From positions 24,237 through 88,236 of the forward strand of contig DATIFP010000196.1 in the NCBI GenBank assembly GCA_035455165.1: 64,000 nt of DNA, read 5' to 3'. Both the position numbers and the translations under genes were made by a program. This DNA comes from Blastocatellia bacterium (lineage in GTDB: Bacteria; Acidobacteriota; Blastocatellia; UBA7656). A model generated the notes under the pieces. The model saw nothing but the letters and a program-made list of their open reading frames with translations, was not told the DNA's origin and did no database searches. How positions within the stretch are numbered: position 1 is the first letter of the stretch; each line of letters opens with the position of its first letter. Below, piece by piece: positions 1 to 21,764 of the stretch.

Positions 1-1
1 G

Positions 2-1651
2 ACCGATCCTTACACGCCGCTGTTTAGAGCGTATGAGGAGGACAAAGTCCAGGTCCGTATTCTGGTGGGCGCGCACGAAGAAGGCCACAACTTCAGCGTG
101 CACGGCGTCAGGTGGCTGTTCGAGCCTTCCAGCGCCAATTCCGGATGGCGCAACAGCCAGATGATGGGCATCAGCGAGCACTTCGAGTTCGTGGTGCCAA
201 GAGTCACAGTGGTCGATAGCGGCAAGGCGTTTGCTGACTTCCTGTATAAGCCGGGTTCCTCGGTCGACGATCTGTGGAACGGCATGTGGGGGATCCTTCG
301 AAGTTATCAGGGAAAGCGAACCGATTTGCTGACGCTGCCGAATAACCCCAACGGCAAGGCTCCAAACATAACCAACGCGAGCAGCTTCAACGGGGTCTGT
401 CCCACAACTGCTCCCGTTAGAAGCTCCGACGTCAGTGCCGTATTGGCGCGGGACGTGCTCCCTCAAGGGAAGCTGATCTACAATCCTCGCACTAATCTCG
501 GGTCCGTCAACCCGCCCGGACCGATCAACGATCCAACGGCGATCCTGTTCGTTAGGACAGACGACCTGGATTACAACGGCAACCTCAAACCCGGAGTTGC
601 GGTCGAGCCGCTCGTGCTTCGGGCTAACGCCGGCGACTGCATCAAGGTTACGCTGCGCAACAAACTGTCGTTTACGATGCCTGACCTCGACGGCTTCAAC
701 ACGCTGCCGATGATCGTAGACAACTTCAACGCAAACCAGATCACACCCGGAAGGCGAGTGGGACTGCATCCGCAACTGTTGACCTACAGCATCACCGAGG
801 ACGACGGGGCGGATGTGGGATTCAACCCAATACAAACCGCCAACGTGGGAGAGGTCGTGACCTATCAGTGGTACGCCGGAGACGTGAAACTGTCCGGAAG
901 CACGCTGATTGCCACTCCGATCGAGTTTGGCGCTACGAACCTGATCTCGTCAGACCCGATCAAGCATAGCAACAAGGGGGCGATTGCGGCGGAAATCATC
1001 GAGCCGCAAGGCTCGACGTGGACTTGGGACTCAGGGCCCAGGCGAGCTTCAGCTACAATTGACCCGCCGGGCTCGGGTAACGCATTCAGGGAGTTCGTCC
1101 TGTTTGCGCAGAACGACGTCAACTTCAGATTCGGCGATGGATCGCCCATACCGATCATCGCGGAAGAAGAGGATCCCGAAGACGGTTCGGGCAAGGCGTT
1201 CAACTATCGCACCGAGCCGATGTGGGCCCGGTTGGGCTACGCGCCCGATACCCCGCTGACGATAACTCGCACGTTCGACTTCACCAACGCGCTTTCGAAC
1301 ATTCAGGTCGGAGGTGATCCGGTCACCCCGATCTTCACCGCGTCGGATGGAGACCGCGTGCGCTTCCGAGTGTTGATGCCCGGTGGGCATGGACGCAACA
1401 ACATATTCGTGGTCCACGGCCATGCGTGGCAGGAGGAGCCGTTTGCCAGCAGCTCTACGGTGATCGGTTCCAATCCGCGCTCTGAAGTCAAGGGAGCCGA
1501 GATGGGCGTTGGTCCTTCGTTCCACTTCAATGCTGTTCCGTTGAATGGAGCTGGCGGGAAGTTCGGGGTCCCAGGCGATTACCTGTACCGAACTTTCCAG
1601 TCATTCCAATTTGACGGAGGTATGTGGGGTATCTTCCGAGTCACGCCATAA
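2..1651 (+). CDS. 5'-truncated paralog (C-terminal ~550 aa) of the giant multicopper-oxidase-like protein; the gene begins upstream of the window
   Basis: Reading frame is open from nt 2. The translation (DPYTPLFRAYEEDKVQVRILVGAHEEGHNFSVHG...) aligns at roughly 55-60% identity to residues ~1180-1733 of the 7523..12724 product. Shared blocks include AHEEGHNF, NSQMMGISEHFEF, LRANAGDC, KHSNKGA and GGHGRNN..HGH. Stop at 1649-1651. Confidence 0.8.
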   Translation, partial: TDPYTPLFRAYEEDKVQVRILVGAHEEGHNFSVHGVRWLFEPSSANSGWRNSQMMGISEHFEFVVPRVTVVDSGKAFADFLYKPGSSVDDLWNGMWGILRSYQGKRTDLLTLPNNPNGKAPNITNASSFNGVCPTTAPVRSSDVSAVLARDVLPQGKLIYNPRTNLGSVNPPGPINDPTAILFVRTDDLDYNGNLKPGVAVEPLVLRANAGDCIKVTLRNKLSFTMPDLDGFNTLPMIVDNFNANQITPGRRVGLHPQLLTYSITEDDGADVGFNPIQTANVGEVVTYQWYAGDVKLSGSTLIATPIEFGATNLISSDPIKHSNKGAIAAEIIEPQGSTWTWDSGPRRASATIDPPGSGNAFREFVLFAQNDVNFRFGDGSPIPIIAEEEDPEDGSGKAFNYRTEPMWARLGYAPDTPLTITRTFDFTNALSNIQVGGDPVTPIFTASDGDRVRFRVLMPGGHGRNNIFVVHGHAWQEEPFASSSTVIGSNPRSEVKGAEMGVGPSFHFNAVPLNGAGGKFGVPGDYLYRTFQSFQFDGGMWGIFRVTP

Positions 1652-1666
1652 CTTGTTCACCTGGGC

Positions 1667-1698
1667 GGAATGCAGCTTGCCCTGGCAGGCTGCATTCC
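1667..1698 (+). terminator. GC-rich hairpin (10-bp perfect stem GGAATGCAGC/GCTGCATTCC, 12-nt loop) 16 nt after the stop of the truncated oxidase paralog; no clear U-tract
   Basis: Inverted repeat read directly from the sequence. Confidence 0.4.
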
Positions 1699-1962: not shown

Positions 1963-2106
1963 GAGATAGATTACGCGCTGACAGCACTGCGTACGCTTTA
2001 TCTCCTAAAGTGTGGAACAAAAATCTCCTCCCAGGCGGTGGTGTCGCACGGTTGCCGGTAGCGACGGGAGGGTACCCTCGGTTAATTGCCCCTGAGCCGG
2101 AGGATC

Positions 2107-3558
2107 ATGAAAAAGATCGGCAGCTTCAAGCTCATCATCTTTTTCACAGCGCTCACCGTAGTCCTGACGTGGCTGGTGATTTTTGGTTACGAGAGCTATC
2201 TGCGCGGGCCCTTCTATTCGTGGGTCGAAGCACGATATCCCGGCGACAAGCCGCTTCAAGAAACGATCGAACAACGAGTCGAACATTTCTGGATATCGAC
2301 GATGGTCGATGTGATAGTCGTGACGCTGCTGCTCGGCCTGGTCAATCGCCAGCAAAGAAAGGTGAGAGAAAGCGAGAAGCGTTACCGGGCGCTGTTCGAG
2401 CACGCCGGGGACGGAATCGGCGTGGTGACCGCGCTCGATCACTTGCTCGTCGATGCAAACAAGAAGTTCGGGGACATTCTCGATCTCAACCACCAGGCGA
2501 TCGTCGGCAAGCACATCTCCGAAATAATAGACGTGGTTGGGGACGGCCCGGAACATCGCCTGCTTTCGAAGCTATGCGATAAGGGCGCCGACGAAGCCGG
2601 CGAGTGGTCGGATGAAGAGGAGCTCGATATTCGCACCGGGGCGGGTTCTCAAGTGACGGTTGCCGCATCGTGCAGCAAGCTGTCGACAGGTAAACAGCGG
2701 TTTTTCATACTCATCATCCGGGACGTAACCGAGCGCAAGCGGCTCCATCGAGAGAGGCAGGAGATAGAACGCCAGCTCTTCCAGCAGTCGAAGCTGGCGT
2801 CGCTCGGCGAGCTGTCCGCGGGCGTGGCTCACGAGATAAATAACCCGCTCAATTGCATTGTGAATTTCGCCCAGCTGCTAAGAGACGACGGCGTGGCTCG
2901 CAACGAAATGGAACGGCGCATGGTCGACGGGATAATTGAGGAAGGCGATCGAATAGCCAGCATCGTACGAAACCTGTTGACCTTCGCTCGCCAGGATTCT
3001 AATAAGCCGACCGCCGTGTCGGTCATACGCGTCATCGGGGACTCAGTCTCATTGTTCGGCAGCCAACTCGAACGGGATGGGATAACGCTCGAGCTGGAAT
3101 CAGATCCTGAAATCTATCCGGTGCGCGCCGATGCGACGAGGCTTCGCCAGGTGGTGGTCAACATGATCAGCAACGCGCATTACGCCCTGAAGGGGAAGGC
3201 GCCCGGAGAAAGGTTGTTTCGCATAACGGCGCGCAACGCGGGGCGCGCGGGTGAACGGGTCGTTCGCATGGAGTTCTACGACAACGGCCCGGGCGTTCCA
3301 AGCAAGAACGTAGACAAGATTTTCGATCCTTTCTTTACTACTCGGCGAGACAGCGGTGGAACCGGCCTGGGGCTTAGCCTGAGCTTTGGCATCATACGAG
3401 ATTACGGCGGACAGATATGGGTCGAGAGTGAAGAAGGCAGATACACGCGATTCATTGTAGAGCTGCCGGCTGAAGTCTCTCGGGAGGCGGAGTATGCCGA
3501 AAGTCTTGCTGGTGGACGACGAGCCGAACATACGCTGGACGATGGCGGAGCTGCTTAA
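2107..3558 (+). CDS. Membrane-anchored PAS sensor histidine kinase
   Basis: GGAGGA Shine-Dalgarno sequence just before ATG 2107 (the ORF tool start at 2086 is less likely). N-terminal transmembrane segments, then a PAS-like segment. H-box LGELSAGVAHEINNPLN. HATPase_c motifs (DNGPGVP, GGTGLGLS). Confidence 0.85.
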   Translation: MKKIGSFKLIIFFTALTVVLTWLVIFGYESYLRGPFYSWVEARYPGDKPLQETIEQRVEHFWISTMVDVIVVTLLLGLVNRQQRKVRESEKRYRALFEHAGDGIGVVTALDHLLVDANKKFGDILDLNHQAIVGKHISEIIDVVGDGPEHRLLSKLCDKGADEAGEWSDEEELDIRTGAGSQVTVAASCSKLSTGKQRFFILIIRDVTERKRLHRERQEIERQLFQQSKLASLGELSAGVAHEINNPLNCIVNFAQLLRDDGVARNEMERRMVDGIIEEGDRIASIVRNLLTFARQDSNKPTAVSVIRVIGDSVSLFGSQLERDGITLELESDPEIYPVRADATRLRQVVVNMISNAHYALKGKAPGERLFRITARNAGRAGERVVRMEFYDNGPGVPSKNVDKIFDPFFTTRRDSGGTGLGLSLSFGIIRDYGGQIWVESEEGRYTRFIVELPAEVSREAEYAESLAGGRRAEHTLDDGGAA

Positions 3559-5053
3559 GCGCGAAGGCTTCGAAGCGCTCACCGCGTCGGATTTCGAGAG
3601 CGCCATTTCGGTTGTCGAGAACAACGCTATCGATGCAGCCCTCGTAGATATCGTTCTGCCATCGAAAAGCGGGGTCGAGATTCTGAAGGCCCTTCAAGAA
3701 CGCGAACCCTATGTGCCCGTCATAATGGTGACGGGCGAGCCTAACATTTCTCAGATGCCAGAGATCGTGCGGGCAGGCGCGTACGACTTCCTTGCCAAGC
3801 CCGTGGTTAAGGATGTTCTGATCGCTGCTGTCTCGAGGGCGGTCGCGCACAAGCAGCTCCTGGACGAGAAGCGCCGGTTGGAGGAACAAATCAAACGGCA
3901 TGCCGAGGAACTCGAGCTGACCGTGGCAGAGCGAACGCACGAACTCGCCGAGGCTCACAATTTTCTCAACACCGTGCTCGACAGTTCGACCGAACACGCC
4001 ATCATCGCCGTAGATGCTCGAGGCTTGATTATGCTGTTCAACCGCGGCGCCGAGAATATGCTCGGATACAGCGTCCGCGAGGCATTGGGAAGTGATCCGC
4101 GAAAACTGGTGGGAAGCGAAGCATATCGAGGCGGATCGCCGTTTGGTCGTTGGGCAAGACAAGTCCGGGGCGAAGGGCGCCACAAGGCGGAAGTAGTACT
4201 CCGGCGAGCGAACGAAGAGAGATTCACCGCCTCGGTCACCGTAACACCGATCCAGGAGCAAGGTGGGCCATTGCTCGGGTACCTGTGCGTGGTGAAGGAC
4301 CTGACCGAGGAGCGACACAACGAGGAGCGTCTCCGCCAATTGAGCGCCCGGCTTGCTCACCATGAGAAGATTGCGGCGCTTGGCCGCATGGCTGCGCAGC
4401 TCGCTCACGAGATAAAGAACCCTCTGGCCGGGCTGAAACTCTACTCGCGGCACCTAAAAAACAAGATCGCGGGCAAGATCCCTCCAGCGGAAGAAAGCCT
4501 GGTCGACAAGATTAACGATGGCATAGATCAGCTTTCGGAGACTGCCGAACAGGTTCTCAGTTTCGCGCGCCCGATCACGTTGACGCCCCGTCCTGTCGAT
4601 CTCAACAGCGTCATCACCGCTTCGCTGGAGTTGGTCGAGCCGCAGCTGAGCGCCAGGAGAATCAAGGTTGAGTTGAACCTGAAGCAGCCAGGAGCCCGAG
4701 GGACAATCGACGAAGCCGCCATGCGCTCGACTTTGATAAACCTCCTGCTCAACTCGATCCAGGCGATGAGCGAGGGCGGGGAGCTCAGAGTATCAACCGA
4801 CGCGGGCGATCAGGAGCTTCGCGTGGAGATAGCCGATACAGGCTCCGGGATGACTGACGAGGAGGTGAAACACATATTCGAGCCGTTCTATACCACCAAG
4901 AGCCAGGGGTTAGGCCTCGGGCTCTTCTTTGCGGCTACGGTAATCGAACAGCACAGCGGATCAGTCGATGTGAAGAGCCAACCCGGAAAGGGCACTAAGA
5001 TTACTATAAAGCTGCCGATGGGGAGGGGAAAGGCCGATGGGGTCAGCGGGTAG
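3494..5053 (+). CDS. Hybrid two-component protein: N-terminal receiver, PAS, HisKA and HATPase_c
   Basis: Begins MPKVLLVDDEP, a classic receiver start, and overlaps the preceding kinase gene by 65 nt in another frame. PAS (AIIAVDARGLIMLFNRGAENMLGY). H-box AAQLAHEIKNPLAG. ATP-lid (DTGSGM, GLGLGL). Confidence 0.85.
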   Translation: MPKVLLVDDEPNIRWTMAELLKREGFEALTASDFESAISVVENNAIDAALVDIVLPSKSGVEILKALQEREPYVPVIMVTGEPNISQMPEIVRAGAYDFLAKPVVKDVLIAAVSRAVAHKQLLDEKRRLEEQIKRHAEELELTVAERTHELAEAHNFLNTVLDSSTEHAIIAVDARGLIMLFNRGAENMLGYSVREALGSDPRKLVGSEAYRGGSPFGRWARQVRGEGRHKAEVVLRRANEERFTASVTVTPIQEQGGPLLGYLCVVKDLTEERHNEERLRQLSARLAHHEKIAALGRMAAQLAHEIKNPLAGLKLYSRHLKNKIAGKIPPAEESLVDKINDGIDQLSETAEQVLSFARPITLTPRPVDLNSVITASLELVEPQLSARRIKVELNLKQPGARGTIDEAAMRSTLINLLLNSIQAMSEGGELRVSTDAGDQELRVEIADTGSGMTDEEVKHIFEPFYTTKSQGLGLGLFFAATVIEQHSGSVDVKSQPGKGTKITIKLPMGRGKADGVSG

Positions 5054-6452
5054 AATTCTGGTGGTCGATGATGAGAGCAGCGTCACCGACGCACTCGCAC
5101 TGATACTCGGCGATCGAGGCTACGAGATCCAGACCGCCGGTGCGGTTGCAGAAGCGGTCGAGTTGCTTGCGCGCCGCCCTGTCGACCTGGTCTTAACCGA
5201 CCTCAGGTTGAGCGATTCGACCGGACTCGAGCTCCTGACTCGCATAAAGCAAAACACGCCAGAAACCGAAGTCATACTGATGACCGCCCACGGCTCGCTC
5301 GACGTGACCATCGATGCCATCAAGAAGGGCGCGTACTATTATCTCGAAAAGCCATTCACCCCCGACCAGGTTCTAATGCTGGTCGAGCGAGCCATTGAAC
5401 TCGCAAGCGTCAAGCGTGAAAACCGAGCGCTAAAGCGCACGGAAGAAGCGAGAGCCTTCGGGATGGTGGGGCGGACGCCGAAGATGCTGGAGATCTATGA
5501 GACAATCCGCGCGACCGCGCCGTCCGAAGCATCGGTTCTGATCGAGGGCGAGAGCGGGACCGGCAAGGAGTTGATCGCCTCCGCCTTTCATTCGCATAGC
5601 AACCGCGCCCGCGCGCCGTTCGTGCGAATCAACTGTGCCGCCATCCCGCGCGATCTGATCGAATCGGAGCTGTTCGGTTACAAGAAAGGCGCCTTTACGG
5701 GAGCCGATCGCGACAAACGCGGACTGATCGAAGCGGCGTCGGGGGGAACACTGCTGCTGGACGAAGTCGCCGAGATGCCCGCGCATCTTCAAACCAAATT
5801 GCTCCGCGTGCTCCAGGACCGACGGGTTCGGCGTGTGGGTGATGAACAGGAGATTGGGATCGACTTCAGGCTTGTGGCGGCCACCAACCGCAGCACCGCG
5901 GAGGCCATGAAGCAGGGGGTTCTGCGCGAAGACCTCTACTTTCGAATCAGCACCATCAAGATAACCGTGCCGCCGCTCCGTGAGCGGTTGGACGACCTGC
6001 CCCTGCTTGCCGAAGAGATCTTGCAAAGATATGCGGGCAAGTACGGCAAAGTCATTCGCGGCGTATCGCAAGCCGCCTACTCGCTGCTTTCGCGCTATGA
6101 CTGGCCCGGCAACGTCCGTGAGCTCGAGAGCGTCATCGAACGGGCTGTTCTGTTTTGCCCGGACGCACAACTCGGCCCCGAGCATCTCCCCGATCACCTT
6201 AGGAGCGCGCGAGAGGGGAGCTTTCGATGTGAGATACCTCCCTATCTGACTCTGGAAGAGATCGAGCGGGAGGCCATCGAGCAGACGCTCGAGCGCACCG
6301 GGGGCAACGTCAAGAAAACCGCTCAGATCCTCAACATGCACCGCCCTACCCTTTACCGGAAACTTAGACGATTCGGGCTCAAGCGCGGCGTTTCAGGGGA
6401 AGATGAGACAATATCGATTGGAATAGGATCTTCGACTCAGACTCCGAGCTAG
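5037..6452 (+). CDS. Sigma54-dependent transcriptional response regulator (NtrC family)
   Basis: Receiver (ILVVDDE...DLRLSD). AAA+ sigma54-interaction domain (GESGTGKE Walker A, ESELFGY, GAFTGA-like KGAFTGA). C-terminal Fis-type HTH (KTAQILNMHRPTLYRKLRRFGL). 17-nt overlap with the upstream gene. Confidence 0.9.
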   Translation: MGSAGRILVVDDESSVTDALALILGDRGYEIQTAGAVAEAVELLARRPVDLVLTDLRLSDSTGLELLTRIKQNTPETEVILMTAHGSLDVTIDAIKKGAYYYLEKPFTPDQVLMLVERAIELASVKRENRALKRTEEARAFGMVGRTPKMLEIYETIRATAPSEASVLIEGESGTGKELIASAFHSHSNRARAPFVRINCAAIPRDLIESELFGYKKGAFTGADRDKRGLIEAASGGTLLLDEVAEMPAHLQTKLLRVLQDRRVRRVGDEQEIGIDFRLVAATNRSTAEAMKQGVLREDLYFRISTIKITVPPLRERLDDLPLLAEEILQRYAGKYGKVIRGVSQAAYSLLSRYDWPGNVRELESVIERAVLFCPDAQLGPEHLPDHLRSAREGSFRCEIPPYLTLEEIEREAIEQTLERTGGNVKKTAQILNMHRPTLYRKLRRFGLKRGVSGEDETISIGIGSSTQTPS

Positions 6453-6666
6453 ATGGGTCCAGCCCAGCCAATCCAGGCCAGCCCTGAGCCATCGTCGACA
6501 GTCTCGATAACATGCGCTCGAGGCGCGGCCGTGGATTGCATTTTGCATCACAAACTGCGGTATTAAATCCCGTTGAGCCGAGAATCCTGCCCCTCGTATT
6601 GGTTCCGTCAGTCGGCTGTGCGCGTGGTTTCTGGCTGCGATAGAAAGACGTTGCAGAGGGAGCCTG

Positions 6667-7038
6667 ATGTCCGTGGGAATGACAGTCCTGGTAGTTGATG
6701 ACGAGCCCAGTGTTCGCGATGCCCTCGAGTTGATCTTGAGCGACAGCGGCTATTTCGTTCTTGCCTCGATGAGTGGGCGGGACGCGCTCGGCAAAGCGCA
6801 CAGGCAAAGGATCGACGTCGCGATCGTCGACGTCGAACTGCCAGATATGTCTGGGCTCGATGTTCTTCGTCATCTCCGGGAAAAAGACCCAGGCCTTCAA
6901 GTCATTGTTATTACGGCGAACCCCACTCCCGCGATAGTCCAAGAAGCGAGAAAGCGAGGCGCGGCTGATTGTCTGCATAAGCCCTTTCACCCCGCGGACA
7001 TTGTCGATGCGATCCAAAGTGCTTTGGCGAGACCGTAG
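6667..7038 (+). CDS. Stand-alone CheY-like receiver domain protein
   Basis: 123 aa, VLVVDDEPSVRDALE...DVAIVDVELPDMSG...KPF; no output domain. Confidence 0.8.
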   Translation: MSVGMTVLVVDDEPSVRDALELILSDSGYFVLASMSGRDALGKAHRQRIDVAIVDVELPDMSGLDVLRHLREKDPGLQVIVITANPTPAIVQEARKRGAADCLHKPFHPADIVDAIQSALARP

Positions 7039-7354
7039 GCGCCTGAGCCCCAGCACCTGGTCATCAATAATAGAGGTCACACTATGGTTTATGTTGAATC
7101 ATACAGACGAACTGTTGATTCACAATAGAACACGGTCGGTATGCGCCCGGAAGAATGCGGTGTCGCTAACAGAGTACGAATCAGGGCTTTCTGGTTTCTT
7201 TGTGACAGTCGGCACATCGTTTGCTCGTTGGGGTGCAGCGGCTCGGCGCCTTAATCCGAAGCGGCCGATGCGCGCTAGGGTTTGCTCTAGTCTGTGATCC
7301 ATAGCCCCGAAATCCACCTTTGAATTCCGGGCCCTGTAGTTAGCCGTTCTGATG

Positions 7355-12724: not shown

Positions 12725-12735
12725 CTGTTCGCTTC

Positions 12736-12772
12736 CTGGAGCGCGGCCTGGCTTGATCAGGCCGCGCTCCAG
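12736..12772 (+). terminator. Strong GC-rich hairpin (15-bp perfect stem CTGGAGCGCGGCCTG/CAGGCCGCGCTCCAG, 7-nt loop) 12 nt after the oxidase stop
   Basis: Perfect inverted repeat read from the sequence; no U-tract, as is common in high-GC genomes. Confidence 0.5.
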
Positions 12773-12839
12773 CCTTCGCCCTGCGAGGAGCAGCCCGGTG
12801 CTCACCTGATGAACCTTGATGAATGCGAGATGAAATATC

Positions 12840-13079
12840 ATGAACAGCTCTGACAATCCTCGCCCGGCCTTCGAGACGACCGACCTCAATCTGGCAAGCT
12901 TCCTGCGATCGCGCAGCTTCGAGATTGCAGACATCAAACGCCAGAACTCCAAAACGATTTTTGCCTTCGATGATTCGCCGGCTCTACGCCAGGCGATCCT
13001 CGATTTTGCGAACGACGGAACGGTCGCAGTCCGGTCGTTTTGCAACACGGTCAGGGATTTGAAGGCCATCACGCGGTAG
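12840..13079 (+). CDS. Small hypothetical protein (79 aa), no recognised function
   Basis: Intact ORF between the oxidase terminator hairpin and the beta-propeller gene; no signal peptide; weak RBS. Confidence 0.4.
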   Translation: MNSSDNPRPAFETTDLNLASFLRSRSFEIADIKRQNSKTIFAFDDSPALRQAILDFANDGTVAVRSFCNTVRDLKAITR

Positions 13080-15207: not shown

Positions 15208-15858
15208 ATGAATATGACAGATGAAACAAAACGTCGATTAGCGGGGCCCGCGTGGACCCGCACTGTGTGGACTGCGCTTGTGGTTGCGGCGAGCGTCGGG
15301 TTCTTGACATGGCCCATAGCGGCGCAATCAAAGAGCCCGGCTCCGGACGACAAGGATTCTCCGGCGCGAAACTATTTCACAGACGTTCAGTTGATCAATC
15401 AGGACGGCAAGCCTATGCGGTTCTACAGCGACTTGCTCAAGGACAAAGTGGTCATCATCAATACGTTCTTCACCACCTGCACAAGCGTCTGTCCTCCGAT
15501 GAGCAGGAACCTGGAACGAGTTCAAAGCTGGCTGGGAGACCGGCTCGGCAAGGACGTTCACATAATCTCGATCAGCGTTGACCCCGCAGTCGACACTCCG
15601 CCGCGGCTCAAAGACTACGCCCAAAAATACAAAGCGCGGCCGGGCTGGTTCTTTGTCGCCGGCAAGAAAGAGAATGCCGAATTCGCATTGCGAAAGATCG
15701 GACAATTTGTCGAATCGAAAGACGACCACTCGACGGTGATCATCATCGGGAATCTGCATACCGGGCTCTGGAAGAAAGCAATGGGTATGGCGAAGGCCGA
15801 AGACCTGATCAAGGTCGTGGAGAGCGTGGTCGATGATAAGCCGGGAGAGGTGAAATGA
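15208..15858 (+). CDS. Sco1/SenC-family copper chaperone (thioredoxin fold, CxxxCP)
   Basis: Signal/anchor, FFTTCTSVCPPM (CxxxCP copper site), conserved His in DHSTVIIIG, ISISVDPAVDTP. Confidence 0.85.
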   Translation: MNMTDETKRRLAGPAWTRTVWTALVVAASVGFLTWPIAAQSKSPAPDDKDSPARNYFTDVQLINQDGKPMRFYSDLLKDKVVIINTFFTTCTSVCPPMSRNLERVQSWLGDRLGKDVHIISISVDPAVDTPPRLKDYAQKYKARPGWFFVAGKKENAEFALRKIGQFVESKDDHSTVIIIGNLHTGLWKKAMGMAKAEDLIKVVESVVDDKPGEVK

Positions 15859-17474
15859 AAGCGAACCCAGCCGCGGTGATGAATATCAAACGCATTGCAT
15901 TCGTGGTTGCCTTGATGCTGATGCTCTTGTTTATCGGCAGCGCCGCCGCCAGCGGACCCGGACCGGGTCAACTGACTGAGCAGGAGAAACGGGGGAAGTT
16001 CATTTACCTGCGCGGCGCCAGCCCTTCGGGTAGGGAGATAACCTGCTATCTGGGAGACGGGACGATGGAGGTGCCGGCAGCGGCGATGCTGTGCGCAAAC
16101 TGTCACGGGTTTGACGGCCGGGGAAATCCGGAAGGCGGGGTGGTGCCCTCGGACATAACCTGGGAGGCGCTCTCCAAGTCTTATGGAGTCACTCACGCGA
16201 GCGGACGAAAGCATCCTCCCTACACGGACCGCGCGCTTGGGATCGCGGTGGCCAAAGGCATAGACCCGGCGGGGAACAAGCTGCCCAACACGATGCCGAG
16301 ATACTGGATGTCGCCGGAAGATCTCGCCGATCTGGTCGCTTATGTGAAACGTCTCGGACAGGATCGCGACCCGGGGTTGACGGAGACGAGCATCCGAGTC
16401 GGGACGATCGTGGCCGGACCGGGCCCGATGTCGGAAATGGGCCACGCGGTGGAAGCGGCCCTGGGAGCTTATTTCGAGGAGGTCAACGCCCAGGGTGGAA
16501 TCTACAATCGCATGATCGAGCTGCGCGTCGCCAAGTCACCGGCTGACCCGCGAGCAGCCAAATCAAATGCCGAGCGGTTCATCGACACCGAGCAGGTGTT
16601 CGCAATGGCGGGCGCGTTCATCGCGGGAGCGGACAAGGAAATAGCTTCGCTTGTCGAAGAAAAAGAAGTAGTGCTGGTAGGGCCGTCGACTCTCTATCCG
16701 GAGATTGGCTTTCCCCTGAACCGACACACTTTCTATCTGTTCTCGGGCTTGAAAGATCAAGCCGGTGCGCTGGTCAACTTCATCGGAGACAAACTTCAAA
16801 AGCAGACCCCGCGGCTCGCGATTGTCGCTCTCGATAGCGCCGACGCCGCGGGCCTCACGGAAGCGATTGAGAAACACGCCAAAAGACGCGGCTACAACGC
16901 AATCACCAGGCTCAGCTATTCGCGCAAGCAGTTTGATCCGGGCCAACTCGTCAAGAAGCTGAGCGACGCGGGCGCGGATGCGGTTTTCCTCTCAGGTTGG
17001 GGCGGAGAAGAGCTGGCGCTTATGAAAGAGGCGGCGAGGATGAACTTTACACCGTACTTTTTGATTCCCGGGTCGCTTGCCAGTAAGGAACTCCTGGATG
17101 CCCCGCCGATCCTCAAAGAAAGGATCTTTTTGGCTTTTCCGACTCTGCCAACAGACCAGACGCCGGAGGGCGTGCGCGAGTTTCTCACGATGGCAGAAAA
17201 GCACAACCTTCCGCAAAAGCAGCTTGCCGCTCAGCTCTCGGCATACTGCGCGGCGAAGATTCTCGTTGAGGCCTTGAAGCTGACGGGCAGGGAGCTGAGC
17301 CGCGAGAAGCTCATCAGGACGCTGGAGGGTCTTTACAACTTCGATACCGGATTGAGCCCCCGAATCTCTTACGGCCCGAATCGCCGAATCGGCGCGTTCG
17401 GAGCCTACATTGTAATGATCGATCCGGAGAAAAAGCAGTTCATTCCTGCGGGCGGCTGGATTACGCCCGAGTAG
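15855..17474 (+). CDS. Fusion protein: N-terminal mono-haem cytochrome c domain plus type-I periplasmic substrate-binding (LivK/PBP1-like) domain
   Basis: Signal peptide; CANCHG haem-binding CxxCH in the first ~150 aa; the remainder resembles branched-chain-amino-acid-type periplasmic binding proteins (VGTIVAGPGPMSEMGHAVEAALGAYFEEVNAQGGIYNRMIEL...). Start overlaps the Sco stop (ATGA). Confidence 0.7.
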   Translation: MKANPAAVMNIKRIAFVVALMLMLLFIGSAAASGPGPGQLTEQEKRGKFIYLRGASPSGREITCYLGDGTMEVPAAAMLCANCHGFDGRGNPEGGVVPSDITWEALSKSYGVTHASGRKHPPYTDRALGIAVAKGIDPAGNKLPNTMPRYWMSPEDLADLVAYVKRLGQDRDPGLTETSIRVGTIVAGPGPMSEMGHAVEAALGAYFEEVNAQGGIYNRMIELRVAKSPADPRAAKSNAERFIDTEQVFAMAGAFIAGADKEIASLVEEKEVVLVGPSTLYPEIGFPLNRHTFYLFSGLKDQAGALVNFIGDKLQKQTPRLAIVALDSADAAGLTEAIEKHAKRRGYNAITRLSYSRKQFDPGQLVKKLSDAGADAVFLSGWGGEELALMKEAARMNFTPYFLIPGSLASKELLDAPPILKERIFLAFPTLPTDQTPEGVREFLTMAEKHNLPQKQLAAQLSAYCAAKILVEALKLTGRELSREKLIRTLEGLYNFDTGLSPRISYGPNRRIGAFGAYIVMIDPEKKQFIPAGGWITPE

Positions 17475-17515
17475 ATGATGCAATGCCGAACCGGAAATTC
17501 CAGAGGAGGAGACCA

Positions 17516-19108
17516 ATGAAACCCAGATTCTTTGTCCTTATCATAGCGATGATGATCGGCGCGTCTGTGACGACGGCCCAGTCCAGCTCGCCCGCAAGCC
17601 CCAGCCAACAGGCGCAAACCGGGCCCACGAAACAGGCTGCGTCGGAGCAGGTTCCGAAGCCGGCCGAAAAGAAAGTCGAAGACTGCGGCTGCGAGGCGGC
17701 CAACACCCCGATCGATGTCGCGGCGATCGTCAACGGCGTGAAGATCACCACGAAGGAAATCGATGACCAGGTGAACGATGAGAAGTCCGGTTTGCAAAAG
17801 CAGGTCGTGGACGCTCGCCGCCGAGAGCTTAACCTGCAGATCAACTCACGGCTCCTCGAGGCTGAAGCCACGAGAAGAGGCACGACAGCCGCAAACGTGC
17901 TCGAGCAGGAGATCATTGCCGCGGTCAAAGATCCGACCGACGCGGAAACCCAGGCCTTCTATGACGAGAACAAGAGCCGCATACCCGGGCCGTTCAGGGA
18001 CTTCAAGCAGCAGATAGTTGAATACATCAAAGCCCAGCGCCAGGAAGGTGCCGCGAAGAAGTTCGCCGATAAGCTCAGGTCAGCGGCCGACGTAAAGATC
18101 CTCGTACAGACCGTCACCGCTCCGCAGAGCGAGTCCGATCGCGCGAAGGTGCTGGCTACCGTTAACGGCGCAGCGATCACCTCCGGAGACGTGGAAAATG
18201 CGTTGAAGCCATTGATCTACGACGTGCAGCTCCGGGTATATGGATTGAGAAAGGCTGAGCTGGCTCTCAGGATCAACGATCTCTTGCTGGAGCAGGAAGC
18301 CCAGAAGAGGAAGATTACGCCGAAGGCGCTCGTTGACGCAGAGTTGACGCCAAATGTGAAGAAAGTCAGCGAAGCGGAGGCAAAGAAGTTCTTCGAGGAC
18401 AACAAGGATCAGATAGAGGGTGAATATGAGCAGTTGAAGGACCAGATCGTCGATCACCTTCAGAAGAAGGAACAACGCAGGGCGGAGGTCGTATTCGCCG
18501 ACCGGCTCAGGCAAGGCGCAAAGATCGAGATGAACCTGAAGGAACCTGAATCTCCGGTTTTTCAGATCGCGACCGACGATCAGCCCTCGAGAGGAAAAGC
18601 CGACGCGCCGGTCACAATTGTCGAGTTCACTGATTTCGAATGCTCGACGTGCCAACAGTCTCAACCGGTCCTGGAAAAGCTCGCTCAGGATTTTCCCGCC
18701 AAGGTGAGACTGGTGGTCAGGGACTACCCGCTCGAGAAACACAAGAACGCATTCAAGGCAGCGGAAGCCGCAGAAGCGGCGCGAGAGCAGGGGAAGTACT
18801 GGGACTATTCGGCGGTCTTGTTTGAGAATCAAAAGGAGTTGGGAGTCGAGAAGCTGAAGGAATATGCGAGCAAAGTGGGACTTGATCGCAAAAAGTTCGA
18901 CGCCGAGTTGGATGCCGGCAAGTATGCCGCGAAAGTGCAGCGCGATATGCAGGATGGAATGCGAGCAGGCGTGAGCGGAACGCCCACAATCTTCATCAAT
19001 GGACGCCGTGTCTCGGACAGGACTTATGAAGCATTGAGGGCAGCCGTCGAAGAGGCCTTGAAAACGCCTGGAAGCCAATCAGAGCGACGCGACGCCGATC
19101 GGCGCTGA
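17516..19108 (+). CDS. Secreted SurA-N-like chaperone repeats fused to a DsbA-family thiol:disulfide oxidoreductase domain (CSTC)
   Basis: GGAGGAG Shine-Dalgarno before ATG 17516. Signal peptide. CGCE motif (AEKKVEDCGCEAANTP). Two repeats of A-VNG--IT--D-type chaperone segments. Thioredoxin CxxC (VTIVEFTDFECSTCQQSQPVLEKL). Confidence 0.75.
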   Translation: MKPRFFVLIIAMMIGASVTTAQSSSPASPSQQAQTGPTKQAASEQVPKPAEKKVEDCGCEAANTPIDVAAIVNGVKITTKEIDDQVNDEKSGLQKQVVDARRRELNLQINSRLLEAEATRRGTTAANVLEQEIIAAVKDPTDAETQAFYDENKSRIPGPFRDFKQQIVEYIKAQRQEGAAKKFADKLRSAADVKILVQTVTAPQSESDRAKVLATVNGAAITSGDVENALKPLIYDVQLRVYGLRKAELALRINDLLLEQEAQKRKITPKALVDAELTPNVKKVSEAEAKKFFEDNKDQIEGEYEQLKDQIVDHLQKKEQRRAEVVFADRLRQGAKIEMNLKEPESPVFQIATDDQPSRGKADAPVTIVEFTDFECSTCQQSQPVLEKLAQDFPAKVRLVVRDYPLEKHKNAFKAAEAAEAAREQGKYWDYSAVLFENQKELGVEKLKEYASKVGLDRKKFDAELDAGKYAAKVQRDMQDGMRAGVSGTPTIFINGRRVSDRTYEALRAAVEEALKTPGSQSERRDADRR

Positions 19109-19180: not shown

Positions 19181-19252
19181 GACTTAAAGCGCGTTCTCGT
19201 GCATCAACGAACCAGCCGAACTGACGAGCGGCAGAGAGAGGCGGTGCAAAGT

Positions 19253-20005
19253 ATGAAACACATAATCGCAATTACACTGATCGTTTGCGGAATCCTGGCG
19301 GCCGGCGCTGGGCCGGGTTCCGTGAATGTCGCGTTGGCCCGGCAATCCAAGAAAAAGCAGAAAGCCGCCGGCTACTACTGTGTGATGGATCCCGAGGTCA
19401 AAGCCTCGAAGCCCGGCACCTGTCCCAAGTGCGGAATGGATCTGAGGGCGATTGAGAAAGACGGCGACGCAGCCTCACCGGATACCGAGTTGTCGAAACC
19501 TAATGAAGCCGATTCTGGTTCGCCCGTGAAGCTGCAAATCCCGGACGTGAGCGTGTACGATCAGGACGGCCAGAAGTTGAAGTTTGTCACCGATCTGGTA
19601 AGAGGCAAAACGGTAGCGATAAATTTCATCTTTACAACCTGTACGACGATCTGTCCCCCGTTGGCGGCAACGTTTCGCAGAGTCCAGCAGGAGATGGGAG
19701 ATCGTGTTGGCCACGACGTGAGACTGATCTCGATAAGCGTTGATCCTGTCGTCGACACACCCGAGAGATTGAAGCAGTTTGGCGCCAAGTTCAAAGCAGC
19801 TCCCGGATGGACCTTCGTCACCGGGAGCAAGTTTGAGATCAACTCTCTATTGAAAGCGCTCGGCGCGGCGGTGGTGGACAAGAACGATCACACGCCGATG
19901 GTACTTGTGGGCAATGACGCGGCGGGCTACTGGACCCGCACCTATGGGCTCGCCCCGGCCTCGGTTCTCGTAAGAGTCATAACCGATGCGGCGAGTAAGA
20001 ACTGA
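19253..20005 (+). CDS. Sco1/SenC-family copper chaperone with N-terminal heavy-metal-binding (YHS/HMBD-type) domain
   Basis: YYCVMDPEVKASKPGTCPKCGMDL matches the YxCPMHPE...PGxCPxCGMxL metal-binding domain of CusB/CopA N-termini. Sco domain IFTTCTTICPPL, ISISVDPVVDTP, DHTPMVLVG. Start chosen at MKHIIA (signal peptide). Confidence 0.8.
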   Translation: MKHIIAITLIVCGILAAGAGPGSVNVALARQSKKKQKAAGYYCVMDPEVKASKPGTCPKCGMDLRAIEKDGDAASPDTELSKPNEADSGSPVKLQIPDVSVYDQDGQKLKFVTDLVRGKTVAINFIFTTCTTICPPLAATFRRVQQEMGDRVGHDVRLISISVDPVVDTPERLKQFGAKFKAAPGWTFVTGSKFEINSLLKALGAAVVDKNDHTPMVLVGNDAAGYWTRTYGLAPASVLVRVITDAASKN

Positions 20006-20204
20006 GCATGCGACGATAGATCTCCGCCATACTGGGACGACTCGGGGAACAAGCCGGCAACCCTCATAATTCGCGAACACCAGGGCCGATTTGACGGTCG
20101 AATCACGATCATGAGTCAATGTTCGGGTAGCCAGGGTCGAACTATGACGATGCTTCGACCTGCCGGCGTCGTTCAACACATGTTGATTCATGATTGGAGG
20201 TCCG

Positions 20205-21764
20205 ATGAAAAGGGTTTCACTGTTGATGGCGGTTGGAGCGATGATCGCTTCTCTTGCGCAACCAGGCAAGGCGTTTTTGAATGTCTCGCAGGATCGGTCC
20301 GCCGCGCCCGTCGCGAAGCAGTCCGCGGCGGCAACGCCCTCAAAATCCGCCGAGAAAAAAGCCGAAGACTGCGGTTGTGAAGTCAAGCCTCCGCCCGACG
20401 TGCTTGCGATTGTCAACGGGGTCAAGATCGCGATCAAGGACGTCGAGGAACCTCTGCAAGAGCGCATCAGGGCGCTTCAGGATCAAGTGATTGAAGCGCG
20501 AAAGCGCCAGCTTGAACTCGAGATCAATTCCAGCCTCCTTGACGCGGAAGCCCGTCGTCTTGGCATCACTACGGAAAAGCTTCTGGATCGTGAAGTAACG
20601 CAAAAGTCCAAAGAGCCGACCGAAGCAGAAGCGCGATCCTTCTACGATTTGAACAAGAGTCAGATTCAAGGCGAGTTCAAGGACGTAAAGGACCAGGTTA
20701 TCGGTTACCTGCGAGGGCTGCGTCAGCGGGAGATTGCGAAGCGGTATGCCGACCGACTTCGGACCGGCGCGCGCGTCAAAGTGCTTGTGCCGTCGGCCAC
20801 TCCTCCGGAAACTGATGCCGACCGTGCGCGTGTATTCGCGATCGTAAACGCCAAGCGCATAACGTCCGGGGATGTCGAGGATTCGCTCAAAGCGATAGTT
20901 GCCAGCGTGCAGGAACAGATCTACAGCCTCCGCAAAGACGAGTTGGACGCGAAAATCAATAACACGTTGCTCGACCAGGAGGCGCAGAAGAAGGGGGTCA
21001 CTGCGCCGGCCCTGTACCAGACCGAGATAGCACCTCGAATGAAGCCCGTGACCGATGAAGAGGCGCGCAAGTTTTACGATGAGAACAAGAGCCGTATGAC
21101 CGGGACCTTCGAGCAGCGGCAGGCGCAGATCATCGAGTACTTGCAGAACTCCAGGAGAACCGCTGCTGAGAAAGCCTTCGCGGAAGACCTGCGAAAAGGA
21201 GCGACTCTTCAAGTGTTCCTCAAGCCGCCCGATCCGCCTGTGTTCAACATACCAATCGACGATCGTCCGTGGCGAGGCGGAGCCTCCGCCCCGGTCACGA
21301 TTGTAGAATTCACCGACTACGAGTGTCCGAGCTGTGGCGCGACACAACCGGTGCTGGAGGAAATCGTCAAGGAATTCGGCGACAAAGTAAAACTGGTCGC
21401 GCGGAATTACCCCCTCGACCAGCATAAGCATGCCTTCAAAGCCGCGGAGGCTGCGGAGTCAGCGCGAGAGCAAGGCAAGTACTGGGAGTATGTCGCGATA
21501 CTGTTCAAGAATCAGAACGCTCTCGAGGTTGAGAAGCTCAAGGAATATGCCGATCAATTGGGACTCGACCGCGGAAGGTTCGATGCCGCGCTCGACTCAG
21601 GGAAGTTCGCCGACAAGGTAAGACGAGACCTCAGCGAAGGCGACAAAGTGGGAGTTGACTCGACCCCGACGGTGTTCATCAACGGGAGGAGGGCGCGTGA
21701 CAGGAGCCGCGAAGCCTTGAAAGCGGCCATAGAAGCCGCTCTTAAGGAGGGCGTCAAGAAATAG
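20205..21764 (+). CDS. Paralog of 17516..19108: SurA-N-like repeats fused to DsbA-family domain (CPSC)
   Basis: GGAGG before ATG 20205; CGCE motif (AEKKAEDCGCEVKPPP); VTIVEFTDYECPSCGATQPVLEEI; same architecture and ~50% identity to the first copy. Confidence 0.75.
   Translation: MKRVSLLMAVGAMIASLAQPGKAFLNVSQDRSAAPVAKQSAAATPSKSAEKKAEDCGCEVKPPPDVLAIVNGVKIAIKDVEEPLQERIRALQDQVIEARKRQLELEINSSLLDAEARRLGITTEKLLDREVTQKSKEPTEAEARSFYDLNKSQIQGEFKDVKDQVIGYLRGLRQREIAKRYADRLRTGARVKVLVPSATPPETDADRARVFAIVNAKRITSGDVEDSLKAIVASVQEQIYSLRKDELDAKINNTLLDQEAQKKGVTAPALYQTEIAPRMKPVTDEEARKFYDENKSRMTGTFEQRQAQIIEYLQNSRRTAAEKAFAEDLRKGATLQVFLKPPDPPVFNIPIDDRPWRGGASAPVTIVEFTDYECPSCGATQPVLEEIVKEFGDKVKLVARNYPLDQHKHAFKAAEAAESAREQGKYWEYVAILFKNQNALEVEKLKEYADQLGLDRGRFDAALDSGKFADKVRRDLSEGDKVGVDSTPTVFINGRRARDRSREALKAAIEAALKEGVKK

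Follow-up and report, generated by a model that had tools for sequence, protein, structure and literature searches.

The locus described here raises the question whether two giant oxidase-like genes, the regulator genes between them and a run of genes for exported proteins behind them constitute a system of their own or a variant of a known one. A first-pass annotation of the window (the whole 64-kb stretch of DNA that was analysed) had favoured the former. The cluster in this soil acidobacterium is real and well conserved, and it is of a kind that has already been described: it is best explained, with the mechanism proposed below, as an acidobacterial (Blastocatellia-like) form of the Pseudomonas putida GB-1 MnxG-type manganese(II)-oxidase cluster, and we regard this reading as likely. 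The genes listed at first pass, here A to L, were all recovered as intact + strand open reading frames at the positions originally assigned.

Giant multicopper oxidases

2..1651, + strand: gene A, second predicted MnxG-family paralog, C-terminal 549 aa, cut by the 5' edge of the window (NF041487)
7523..12724, + strand: gene F, predicted MnxG-family multicopper oxidase, 1733 aa, Sec-type signal peptide (NF041487, PDB 9bxa_A, copper motifs)

The product of F matched the NCBIfam profile NF041487 (copper_ox_MnxG) with 1433.7 bits and, along its whole chain, the MnxG structure PDB 9bxa_A (E=1e-97). The product of A matched positions 1467-1894 of the 1894 profile positions (449 bits) and is 56% identical to residues 1143-1718 in the C-terminal part of F, and two diverged paralogs do bracket the regulators as initially described. 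No significant Cu-oxidase match was obtained for either protein in the Pfam profile search (best match Cu-oxidase_2, E=0.44); the earlier reading as multicopper-oxidase-like giants stands on the MnxG profile, the structure match and the copper motifs. On these grounds A and F are assigned to the MnxG family of multicopper oxidases, though F, with 1434 bits against an NCBIfam equivalog cut-off of 3100 bits, falls short of an ortholog-grade match to Pseudomonas MnxG.

Conservation of the copper ligands in orthologs, on which the first-pass annotation had made its proposal depend, was complete: all four multicopper-oxidase copper motifs of F (H465/H468/H470, H519-C520-H521...H525...M530, H843/H845 and H943/H945) are invariant in 42 homologs. 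Judged by these motifs, the type-1 copper site and the trinuclear-cluster ligand set of F are intact; the AF2 model of residues 1-1200 was too poor for judging copper-site geometry. F contains 17 Cys and no twin-arginine motif, and its Sec-type signal peptide is the only thing seen in favour of the former label 'extracellular'.

The characterised members of the family, from Bacillus (biochemically) and P. putida (genetically), lie at its opposite ends and both oxidise Mn(II); by analogy with these two distant proteins, Mn(II) would be the substrate of F. To our knowledge, no acidobacterial member of the MnxG family has been shown to oxidise Mn(II).

Accessory genes and their linkage to mnxG

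12840..13079, + strand: DUF5659 protein, 79 aa, between F and G (PF18903, E=3.8e-14)
13110..15170, + strand: gene G, exported YVTN/cytochrome-d1-type beta-propeller with C-terminal Ig-like region (Cytochrom_D1, 6e-17; YNCE; TIGR02276, 4e-20)
15208..15858, + strand: gene H, Sco1/SenC copper chaperone or thiol-disulfide protein with CTSVC and DHS motifs (PF02630, 6.5e-17)
15855..17474, + strand: gene I, monohaem cytochrome c (CANCH) fused to a type-I periplasmic binding protein (Cytochrom_C, 5.7e-8; Peripla_BP_6, 6.7e-43)
17483..19108, + strand: gene J, exported SurA_N-like region fused to a DsbA-type thioredoxin (CSTC), with N-terminal D-C-G-C-E (Thioredoxin_4, 2.5e-31; DSBA, 1.2e-17)
19199..20005, + strand: gene K, heavy-metal-binding domain (HMBD; CPKC) fused to Sco1/SenC (CTTIC, DHT) (HMBD, 5.2e-9; SCO1-SenC, 5.8e-18); likely start ATG at 19253
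20190..21764, + strand: gene L, second SurA_N-like/DsbA-type fusion (CPSC), with N-terminal D-C-G-C-E (Thioredoxin_4, 4.5e-31; DSBA, 1.5e-15; SurA_N_3, 4.7e-6)

The tightly spaced set G to L follows F as annotated, but the DUF5659 gene ahead of it had been missed. Copies of this gene, 58-68% identical, lie directly upstream of the propeller gene at 10 genome loci and at metagenome loci, and in locus L121 it is called as a gene; its product has no signal peptide, and the AF2 model (pLDDT 76.6) gave no significant fold match. The accessory proteins all carry export signals together with redox or metal motifs. In the SurA-like/DsbA proteins a CxC and a CxxC motif are conserved in 34/34 homologs and D-C-[GA]-C-E is invariant. 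The SurA_N-like region of both J and L is below the Pfam cut-off, and the SurA_N_3 match of J is weak. We infer maturation roles for the accessory proteins; the propeller, the cytochrome c/binding-protein fusion and the DUF5659 protein are probably assembly factors or partner subunits.

Where 8 kb or more of downstream sequence was available (46 mnxG loci), a propeller gene was found downstream at 30, a Sco gene at 25, a cytochrome c/binding-protein gene at 25, and all three at 23. The loci retrieved include those of the cultured bacteria Pyxidicoccus fallax, Roseomonas populi and Methylobacter luteus, in which propeller, Sco and cytochrome matches lie beside mnxG. In the reverse direction, with 39 loci found through protein I, Sco and mnxG were present at every locus with enough flank; the homologs of I in soil metagenomes always adjoin Sco, with mnxG at most 10 kb away wherever flanks allow. 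Across phyla, a specific linkage to mnxG is seen for the genes of DUF5659, the beta-propeller, Sco, the cytochrome c/binding protein, SurA_N-DsbA and HMBD-Sco. The co-conservation of the oxidases with the Sco/DsbA/cytochrome module, on which the first-pass proposal depended, is thereby borne out.

Regulators and promoter elements

2086..3558, + strand: gene B, membrane-anchored PAS histidine kinase (PAS_9, HisKA, HATPase_c); likely start ATG at 2107
3494..5053, + strand: gene C, soluble receiver-PAS-histidine kinase (Response_reg, PAS_9, HisKA, HATPase_c)
5037..6452, + strand: gene D, NtrC-type sigma-54 enhancer-binding (EBP) response regulator (Response_reg; Sigma54_activat, E=9e-68; AAA_lid_14; HTH_8)
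6534..6549, + strand: tentative sigma-54 -24/-12 element TGGATTGCATTTTGCA upstream of E (GG-N10-GC with 3 mismatches)
6667..7038, + strand: gene E, single-domain response-regulator receiver (Response_reg, E=2e-30; REC only)
7084..7133, no strand: two 19-bp palindromes, 7084-7102 ATGGTTTATGTTGAATCAT and 7115-7133 TTGATTCACAATAGAACAC, 31 bp centre to centre
7210..7225, + strand: sigma-54 -24/-12 element CGGCACATCGTTTGCT (GGCAC-N5-TTGC), some 300 nt ahead of the start codon of F
12736..12772, + strand: perfect 15-16 bp G+C-rich hairpin directly 3' of the F stop codon, without T-run (read from sequence)

Genes B to E represent a two-kinase, two-receiver two-component set. The two kinases, the sigma-54 activator and the lone receiver had been called a phosphorelay at first pass, which is loose wording since an HPt domain is absent from B to E. 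B contains two hydrophobic N-terminal segments predicted from its sequence to be transmembrane, and a tentative sigma-70-like TTGACA-17-TAGATT lies upstream at 1944-1972; C is 27% identical to B, over the kinase core only, and D has a GAFTGA motif. Homologs of B (49-60% identity) are found upstream of mnxG at loci L003, L010, L012, L049 and L067, those of D (64-72% identity) upstream of mnxG on the same strand at 15 of the 43 loci whose upstream sequence spans 6 kb or more, and E keeps its place between EBP gene and mnxG in L001, L010, L021, L067, L073, L089 and L090.

The element at 7210-7225 is the only site of such quality on the + strand within positions 1-26000 of the window. Sites of this type are about 10-fold enriched upstream of mnxG homologs (0.48 per kb versus 0.05 per kb background) and tend to occur where an EBP gene is adjacent (13/18 versus 4/35, Fisher p=1.5e-5). 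A weight matrix built from 17 palindrome sites, all from other loci, ranked 7084-7102 and 7115-7133 first in the whole window (15.5 and 13.9 bits), with two sites of at least 13 bits observed versus 0.35 in shuffles; the same arrangement was found at three loci outside the training set (L089, L090, L003). The palindromes, which like the -24/-12 element go together with the neighbouring NtrC-type activator gene, are predicted to be upstream activator sites bound by D. The sigma-54/NtrC-type control of F put forward at first pass is thus supported, as a prediction, by the -24/-12 element and the conserved palindromes. It is not universal in the clade, as the closest relatives of F (L081, L082 and L121) are without regulators and promoter signature. 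Similar -24/-12 sites occur upstream of E homologs in 5/8 regions scanned, that of the window counted, which is weak evidence for the tentative element at 6534-6549.

The hairpin behind F (minimum free energy of 12725-12800, -43.4 kcal/mol) may act as a terminator or attenuator, or may stabilise the mRNA. Given this hairpin and the 115-nt gap after F, and with no sigma-54 site or palindrome before DUF5659/G in the window, co-transcription is not established here. The arrangement in L003, where one such promoter precedes the DUF5659, propeller, SurA/DsbA, HMBD-Sco and mnxG genes, argues for it.

Comparison with P. putida and proposed mechanism

The putative mnxG operon of P. putida GB-1 and relatives comprises mnxG, a YVTN beta-propeller, two SCO1/SenC proteins, a substrate-binding protein with a cytochrome c domain and a SurA-domain protein (PMC11409713 Table 4; PMC8218464), i.e. 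the same gene set as in the window. The regulatory logic is also the same, with two kinases and a sigma-54 response regulator: in strain GB-1 the MnxS1/MnxS2/MnxR sigma-54 pathway is needed for Mn(II) oxidation and rpoN is required, and sigma-54 and IHF sites lie upstream of P. putida mnxG. The sensors differ, in that B and C carry PAS domains and are 27% identical, whereas Pseudomonas MnxS1 and MnxS2 are without PAS and 58% identical. No functional test of any accessory protein was found in the Pseudomonas mnxG literature consulted for this cluster.

In the proposed mechanism, kinases B and C would set the phosphorylation state of activator D, with receiver E as modulator or phosphate sink, and D would bind the palindromes at 7084-7133 and open the promoter at 7210-7225. 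F would be transcribed from this promoter, and the downstream genes by read-through past the hairpin. F would be exported unfolded by Sec, held and supplied with its disulfides by the SurA_N-DsbA proteins, and loaded at its copper centres by the two Sco proteins, of which one would capture copper with its additional HMBD. Mature F may then oxidise Mn(II) to Mn(III/IV) oxides and reduce O2 to water at the trinuclear cluster.

Alternative explanations

The same family and cluster might act on a physiological substrate other than Mn(II), with Fe(II), Cu(I), phenolics and humic compounds as candidates. Promiscuity is common among multicopper oxidases, F scores below half of the MnxG equivalog cut-off and has low identity to Bacillus MnxG, and many genomes contain two or three diverged mnxG paralogs (L014, L015 and L031 are from one MAG), which could reflect substrate diversification. 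However, the Bacillus and P. putida members both oxidise Mn(II), the accessory gene set is that of the Mn-oxidising Pseudomonas operon, and proteobacterial homologs score the same as F on the MnxG profile; we consider another substrate unlikely. Less probable still is that the propeller, the cytochrome c/binding-protein fusion and perhaps Sco are working partners of the oxidase and not maturation factors, forming a module in the periplasm for electron transfer or for handling Mn(III) that is tied to the respiratory chain. Linkage to mnxG is as tight for the cytochrome c/binding-protein gene as for Sco, a multihaem cytochrome adjoins the cluster in L121, and Mn oxidation in P. putida requires cytochrome c maturation genes, with electron transfer to the respiratory chain raised in the literature as a possibility. 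Yet the ligand set of the trinuclear cluster is complete in F, which should thus be able to pass electrons to O2 alone, no quinol- or oxidase-linked genes occur in the cluster, and Sco, HMBD and DsbA domains have classic assembly functions.

CuA assembly is the best-known role of Sco1/SenC proteins, and H and K carry the CxxxC and DH(S/T) motifs, so that the Sco, DsbA and cytochrome c genes might serve cytochrome c oxidase and neighbour the oxidase genes by chance, as the first-pass annotation had considered. This is already disfavoured, and the least credible of the readings: no cox or other cytochrome oxidase genes were found anywhere in the 64-kb window, the homologs of I are always with Sco and mnxG and not with cox genes, and the set is kept beside mnxG across phyla. 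Hardly better placed is the original proposal of a previously undescribed, self-contained enzyme-plus-assembly system. In the literature consulted, the DUF5659 protein, the DsbA fusion with CxC motif, the HMBD-Sco fusion, the lone receiver, the PAS-type sensors and the placement of regulators between two paralogs are not reported for Pseudomonas. The published Pseudomonas gene set and its sigma-54 two-component control nevertheless mean that the core layout is not undescribed, and public databases already annotate homologs as 'manganese oxidase' or 'copper oxidase'.

Downstream flank

21787..23775, - strand: gene M, polytopic membrane protein with C-terminal TPR repeats (TPR families), convergent with L

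The membership of M in the MnxG-type system is uncertain; it is syntenic in close relatives, with copies of 60-63% identity at the same position in L082, L089, L090 and L092.

Gene content of the cluster

The gene cluster is a phylogenetically distant member of the known mnxG system, with several modest variant features. The plus strand of window positions 1-21764 carries twelve intact open reading frames (ORFs) and one that enters at the 5' edge; these are listed here together with the convergent gene M. The domain assignments of the first-pass annotation were borne out, gene by gene, in profile searches.

A, 2-1651 (+), oxidase paralog, entering from the 5' edge
B, 2086-3558 (+), PAS histidine kinase (profile search)
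C, 3494-5053 (+), receiver-PAS-kinase (profile search)
D, 5037-6452 (+), activator with REC, sigma-54 AAA+ and HTH_8 domains, GAFTGA present
E, 6667-7038 (+), single receiver domain
F, 7523-12724 (+), full-length MnxG-family multicopper oxidase, 1733 aa
DUF5659 gene, 12840-13079 (+), 79 aa, between oxidase gene F and propeller gene G
G, 13110-15170 (+), YVTN/cytochrome-d1-type beta-propeller
H, 15208-15858 (+), Sco1/SenC protein
I, 15855-17474 (+), cytochrome c (CANCH) fused to Peripla_BP_6
J, 17483-19108 (+), SurA_N-like domain with Thioredoxin_4/DsbA
K, 19199-20005 (+), HMBD with Sco
L, 20190-21764 (+), SurA_N-like domain with Thioredoxin_4/DsbA
M, 21787-23775 (-), polytopic membrane protein with C-terminal TPR repeats, convergent with the cluster

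The oxidases F and A

The full-length oxidase F was aligned end to end, from profile position 1, with the NCBIfam profile NF041487 ('manganese-oxidizing multicopper oxidase MnxG'; built on a Pseudomonas protein, 1894 positions) at E=0 and 1433.7 bits, and the truncated paralog A covers profile positions 1467-1894, i.e. through the last position. The score of F lies well below the equivalog cut-off of this profile (3100 bits). Homologs from Methylobacter, Roseomonas, Indioceanicola, Pyxidicoccus and a Pelobacter MAG score 1186-1417 bits, and all non-Pseudomonas homologs scored were equally distant from the Pseudomonas profile; since the proteobacterial, myxobacterial and Pelobacter homologs thus also fall far below 3100 bits, the cut-off delimits the Pseudomonas clade and not the family.

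The MnxG chain of PDB entry 9bxa (9bxa_A) was matched by F at E=1e-97 in six stretches that span chain residues 14-1207, and, with regard to a putative architecture of six cupredoxin domains in three pairs, HMMER alignments of F reveal three internally related units matching the domain pairs of Bacillus MnxG. The copper motifs of F (H465-x2-H468-x-H470, H519-C520-H521-x3-H525-x4-M530, H843-x-H845 and H943-x-H945) align with the equivalent motifs in 9bxa, and these four multicopper-oxidase motifs (HxxHxH, HCHxxxHxxxxM and two HxH) are invariant in sets of 12 and of 42 homologs. A Pfam search of A and F gave no Cu-oxidase match at E<=0.01, and Cu-oxidase_2 only, at E=0.44, when extended to E<=10. 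Absence of cupredoxin or multicopper-oxidase profile hits had been named in the first-pass annotation as evidence against its assignment; this absence is nearly complete in Pfam, and the NF041487, 9bxa and copper-motif results support the assignment. In view of these three results, the missing Pfam match is a failure of sensitivity and not evidence against the fold. An AlphaFold2 model of F residues 1-1200 (42 homologs; mean pLDDT 55, pTM 0.51, copper-site segments below 50) was too poor for domain count, site geometry or fold search, and was left unused.

The signal peptide of F is of the Sec type and lacks a twin-arginine motif; the protein contains 17 cysteines. Paralog A shares 56% identity with the C-terminal third of F, in agreement with the earlier description of the two giant oxidases as diverged paralogs. 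Homology to two distant characterised enzymes, together with the shared operon, suggests Mn(II) as the substrate of F. Strong G+C-rich hairpins without T-runs are found 3' of both oxidase stop codons (F, 12736-12772; A, about 1675-1706), which could be terminators or mRNA stabilisers.

Comparison with the Mn-oxidation systems of Pseudomonas and Bacillus

The putative mnxG operon of Pseudomonas putida GB-1 (IMG 641547570-641547575) includes mnxG, two genes for 'electron transport protein SCO1/SenC' and one for a 'SurA domain' protein (PMC11409713, Table 4 and Fig. 3), as well as genes for a YVTN beta-propeller and for a substrate-binding protein with a cytochrome c domain (PMC11409713; PMC8218464). 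Pseudomonas sp. MS-1 and DSV-1 have kept this operon (PMC11409713), and it was drawn for Pseudomonas strain OF001 as well (PMC8218464). Compared with the published gene list, the domain content of the GB-1 operon matches that of F-G-H/K-I-J/L on the same strand. The observations of the first-pass annotation are confirmed and its interpretation was partly right; its statement that the layout is not that of a described system is not upheld, as the core gene set (PMC11409713; PMC8218464) and sigma-54 regulation have been published for GB-1.

The present cluster differs from the GB-1 operon in its host phylum (Acidobacteriota), in the length of the oxidase (1733 aa for F, against 1894 positions of the Pseudomonas-based NCBIfam profile), in the position of the second Sco gene behind the first SurA-like gene and in the HMBD that this second Sco carries. 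Furthermore, the SurA-like gene is duplicated here and its products carry a DsbA-type thioredoxin domain and a D-C-[GA]-C-E motif, a DUF5659 gene is inserted between mnxG and the propeller gene, and a second mnxG paralog is located 6 kb upstream.

The regulators described for GB-1 are those of the MnxS1/MnxS2/MnxR pathway (PputGB1_2519-2521; two sensor kinases and an NtrC-type response regulator) together with sigma-54 (rpoN). An rpoN::Tn5 mutant of strain MS-1 shows no Mn oxidation, and sigma-54 and IHF sites were predicted upstream of mnxG and mcoA. By domains, the kinases B and C, the activator D, a -24/-12 element at 7210 and a set of palindromes form a MnxS1/MnxS2/MnxR-like arrangement here. 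MnxS1 and MnxS2 are 58% identical and have no PAS or HAMP domain; in contrast, PAS domains are found in both B and C, a receiver forms the N-terminus of C, and the two kinases share 27% identity, confined to the kinase core. The single-domain receiver E is additional to MnxS1/MnxS2/MnxR. The regulator genes are found directly upstream of mnxG in the present cluster, whereas those of GB-1 form their own operon, drawn apart from the mnxG operon (PMC11409713). The first-pass annotation had termed B-E a phosphorelay: the set of two kinases and two receivers is present, whereas no HPt domain was found in B-E in profile searches, so a His-Asp-His-Asp relay is not represented.

Bacillus MnxG comprises 1227 aa and acts on the spore surface together with two small subunits, MnxE and MnxF. 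F is homologous over all domain pairs to the catalytic subunit of the Mnx complex of Bacillus sp. PL-12/SG-1 (MnxE3F3G; PDB 9bxa), a biochemically proven Mn(II) oxidase, and keeps the T1 and trinuclear-cluster motifs; the accessory set differs from the Bacillus complex. No convincing MnxE/F-like small ORFs were found upstream of F, and the sole small conserved ORF is the DUF5659 gene. The MnxG proteins of Bacillus and P. putida are reported to share 25% BLASTP identity.

Linkage of the accessory genes to mnxG

The proteins of the window were searched by tblastn against 80 mnxG loci, of which the 46 with at least 8 kb of downstream sequence were counted. Downstream of mnxG and on the same strand, a propeller gene was found in 30 of the 46 loci, a Sco gene in 25, a gene for the cytochrome c/binding protein likewise in 25, and a SurA/DsbA-type gene in 10; propeller, Sco and cytochrome c/binding protein were all present downstream in 23, and 15 of the 46 represent 'orphan' mnxG paralogs with no such accessory gene downstream. 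Among the loci retrieved, those of the cultured Pyxidicoccus fallax, Roseomonas populi and Methylobacter luteus (Myxococcota and Proteobacteria) showed propeller, Sco and cytochrome matches beside mnxG. In the reverse test, with 39 soil-metagenome loci retrieved through protein I (the cytochrome c/binding fusion) alone, a Sco gene was located directly upstream of the homolog of I wherever room allows, and mnxG was present in every locus with about 8 kb of flanking sequence. The exact gene order of the window, convergent M included, is kept in four loci (L082, L089, L090 and L092).

The Sco proteins H and K carry the signature PF02630 (E=6.5e-17 and 5.8e-18, respectively) and the copper-site motifs CxxxC (C91/C95 in H, C148/C152 in K) with the DHS/DHT histidine, and resemble in PF02630, CxxxC and DH(S/T) the Sco1/SenC factors of CuA assembly. 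The Sco, DsbA and cytochrome genes might accordingly serve the assembly of a cytochrome oxidase. In CuA assembly, the partner genes are cox genes, whereas the partner gene here is a multicopper oxidase and one Sco is fused to an HMBD; no cytochrome oxidase (cox) genes are present in the 64-kb window, and the forward and reverse tests alike place the Sco genes with mnxG, so that a role in cox assembly is disfavoured. The cytochrome c maturation (ccm) genes of P. putida are required for Mn oxidation according to published work; the cytochrome c/binding-protein gene is a candidate explanation for this requirement, by assembly or by electron transfer. That the cytochrome c/binding fusion, perhaps with the propeller, links Mn(II) oxidation by MnxG to the respiratory chain and is not a maturation factor appears highly improbable. 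If true, it would explain the long-known and unexplained ccm requirement in Mn oxidation by Pseudomonas, and abundant soil Acidobacteriota with multiple mnxG paralogs would be energy-conserving Mn oxidisers.

For expression and maturation of the oxidase, the following sequence of events is proposed as the most probable. The activator D, controlled by the kinases B and C and the receiver E, would activate the sigma-54 promoter of F; the oxidase would be exported through Sec, the SurA_N-DsbA proteins would chaperone it and form its disulfides, the Sco proteins would load copper into it, and mature F would oxidise Mn(II) with O2.

In the locus of Roseomonas populi (L069), the cytochrome c/binding-protein gene is succeeded, at about 20196-23700, by ORFs whose N-termini resemble those of type II secretion pseudopilins, an arrangement that would be compatible with MnxG export through such a secretion system. 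The closest ortholog of F (89%; L121, Blastocatellia MAG GCA_049273835.1) has no regulators upstream and, in their place, genes for a molybdopterin oxidoreductase with Fe-S and Rieske subunits (arsenite-oxidase-like; 4472-7960); a multihaem cytochrome gene follows the HMBD-Sco gene (22898-23968).

Regulation

On the plus strand of window 1-26000, a single GG-N10-GC site, CGGCACATCGTTTGCT at 7210-7225, departs from TGGCAC-N5-TTGCA by no more than two mismatches; it is located upstream of F. In 72 mnxG upstream regions the density of such sites is 0.48 per kb, compared with 0.05 per kb in the background, and they favour loci with an adjacent D-like activator gene (13 of 18, against 4 of 35 loci; Fisher p=1.5e-5). 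Loose sigma-54 matches across the window were not above chance (39, against 60 expected); these sites can be judged only by the stricter, comparative analysis that takes position into account. A weaker sigma-54-like site precedes the receiver gene E in the window and in four other loci, and the E-type single-domain receiver is conserved between the activator gene and mnxG.

These upstream regions of mnxG also share two tandem 19-bp palindromes, with a consensus of approximately (G/A)TG(A/T)TTCA-N3-TGAA(A/G)CA(C/T). A weight matrix built from 17 sites, all from other loci, gave its two highest scores in the entire 64-kb window to the palindromes at 7084-7102 (first) and 7115-7133 (second); the spacing between the two is 31 bp, and the -24/-12 element of F follows about 100 bp downstream. 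The same palindrome pair and promoter are present in two loci outside the matrix set (L089 and L090). The closest relatives of F (L081, L082 and L121) show neither regulators nor the promoter signature.

In locus L003, the palindrome pair and promoter are located upstream of DUF5659, propeller, SurA/DsbA, HMBD-Sco and mnxG genes, an indication that accessory genes and oxidase can share one sigma-54 promoter. In the present window, a perfect hairpin of 15-16 bp (12736-12772) comes after F, and a further promoter signature upstream of the DUF5659 gene and G was not found; read-through from F is therefore what we infer for the accessory genes. A sigma-54-like site at 12892, inside the DUF5659 ORF, was rejected: two of its positions are mismatched, one of them the -12 T, and no palindrome precedes it. 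A Mn riboswitch in the leader of F (290 nt) was also considered and dropped; the leader matched no Rfam family and its structure is not unusual (z=+0.9). Rfam searches of the whole window found only a tRNA.

DUF5659 and SurA_N-DsbA proteins

The DUF5659 gene had not been listed in the first-pass annotation. Its product has no signal peptide, and the gene is kept directly upstream of the propeller gene (58-92% identity) even where the propeller gene is not beside mnxG. An AlphaFold2 model of fair quality (pLDDT 76.6) predicts a beta-alpha-beta-beta-alpha-alpha fold, for which Foldseek found nothing significant in the PDB (best E=0.34); sequence comparison with the PDB likewise gave nothing, and no Mnx chain was listed up to E=10. 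The SurA_N-DsbA proteins J and L possess a DsbA-type CxxC and an N-terminal D-C-[GA]-C-E motif, both present in 34 of 34 homologs; the latter is located at residues 61-72 (approximately), just past the signal peptide, and its sequence may represent an extra metal-binding or redox site.

Distribution

Few natural oxidants and sorbents in soil are as strong as Mn oxides, and knowledge of bacterial Mn oxidases is drawn from a few strains of Bacillus, Pseudomonas and Leptothrix. In a survey of 2022, nearly all homologs fell within Proteobacteria, Actinobacteria and Firmicutes, and MnxG in Acidobacteriota has since been noted in metagenome papers. The best matches of F are proteins from MAGs of Blastocatellia and other Acidobacteriota (89% identity and below), many of the top matches being already annotated as 'copper oxidase' or 'manganese oxidase'; the exact F protein is absent from the protein records searched. 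A relative of F is encoded in at least 586 matched stretches of a collection with one genome for each of 185,579 species, and residues 1-1200 of F match 915 clusters (at 50% identity) at E<=1e-30 and 1862 at E<=1e-10. Paralogs of mnxG are often tandem or multiple (L021, L032, L033, L079 and L081; three loci from one MAG). A plasmid search with F matched an unannotated Indioceanicola chromid, and the plasmid homologs of the Bacillus group share about 27% identity with F.

The complete Pseudomonas-type mnxG operon is common in soil Acidobacteriota (Blastocatellia, Pyrinomonadaceae and Thermoanaerobaculia), with a dedicated sigma-54 regulator adjoining it in a subset of the loci. By their conservation across phyla, the genes for the propeller, the two Sco proteins, the cytochrome c/binding protein, the SurA-like protein and, in Acidobacteriota, DUF5659 stand out, and the predicted activator-binding palindrome offers a concrete handle on regulation; the general picture of how such systems are built is unchanged by these results.

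In the soil contig most similar to the window (L081, 14511-21617), the first complete cluster is immediately followed by another mnxG and another propeller gene, which looks like a tandem cluster duplication. On a contig labelled as Candidatus Methanoperedens nitroreducens MAG (L025), an mnxG with 58% identity is followed downstream by a weak propeller match (29%); the presence of this mnxG in an archaeal MAG probably reflects a binning error and not an archaeal gene.

Other features of the window

A second polytopic membrane protein with C-terminal TPR repeats, and with a TMEM260-like O-mannosyltransferase domain, is encoded at 28560-30878 (+). Another NtrC-type sigma-54 activator and a PAS histidine kinase, followed by a secreted PPC-domain protein and an M10 (matrixin-like) metallopeptidase with an Ig-like domain, are encoded at 31473-38330 (+), and may constitute a further sigma-54-controlled secreted-protein unit. 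A tRNA gene is located at 38433-38505 (+), a gene for a LarC-type nickel-insertion protein at 50834-52093 (-), and a gene for a GAF-GGDEF diguanylate cyclase at 59069-60814 (-); the remaining window represents ordinary chromosomal housekeeping genes (RuvB, MetRS, ArgRS, DAHP synthase and a Mur ligase).
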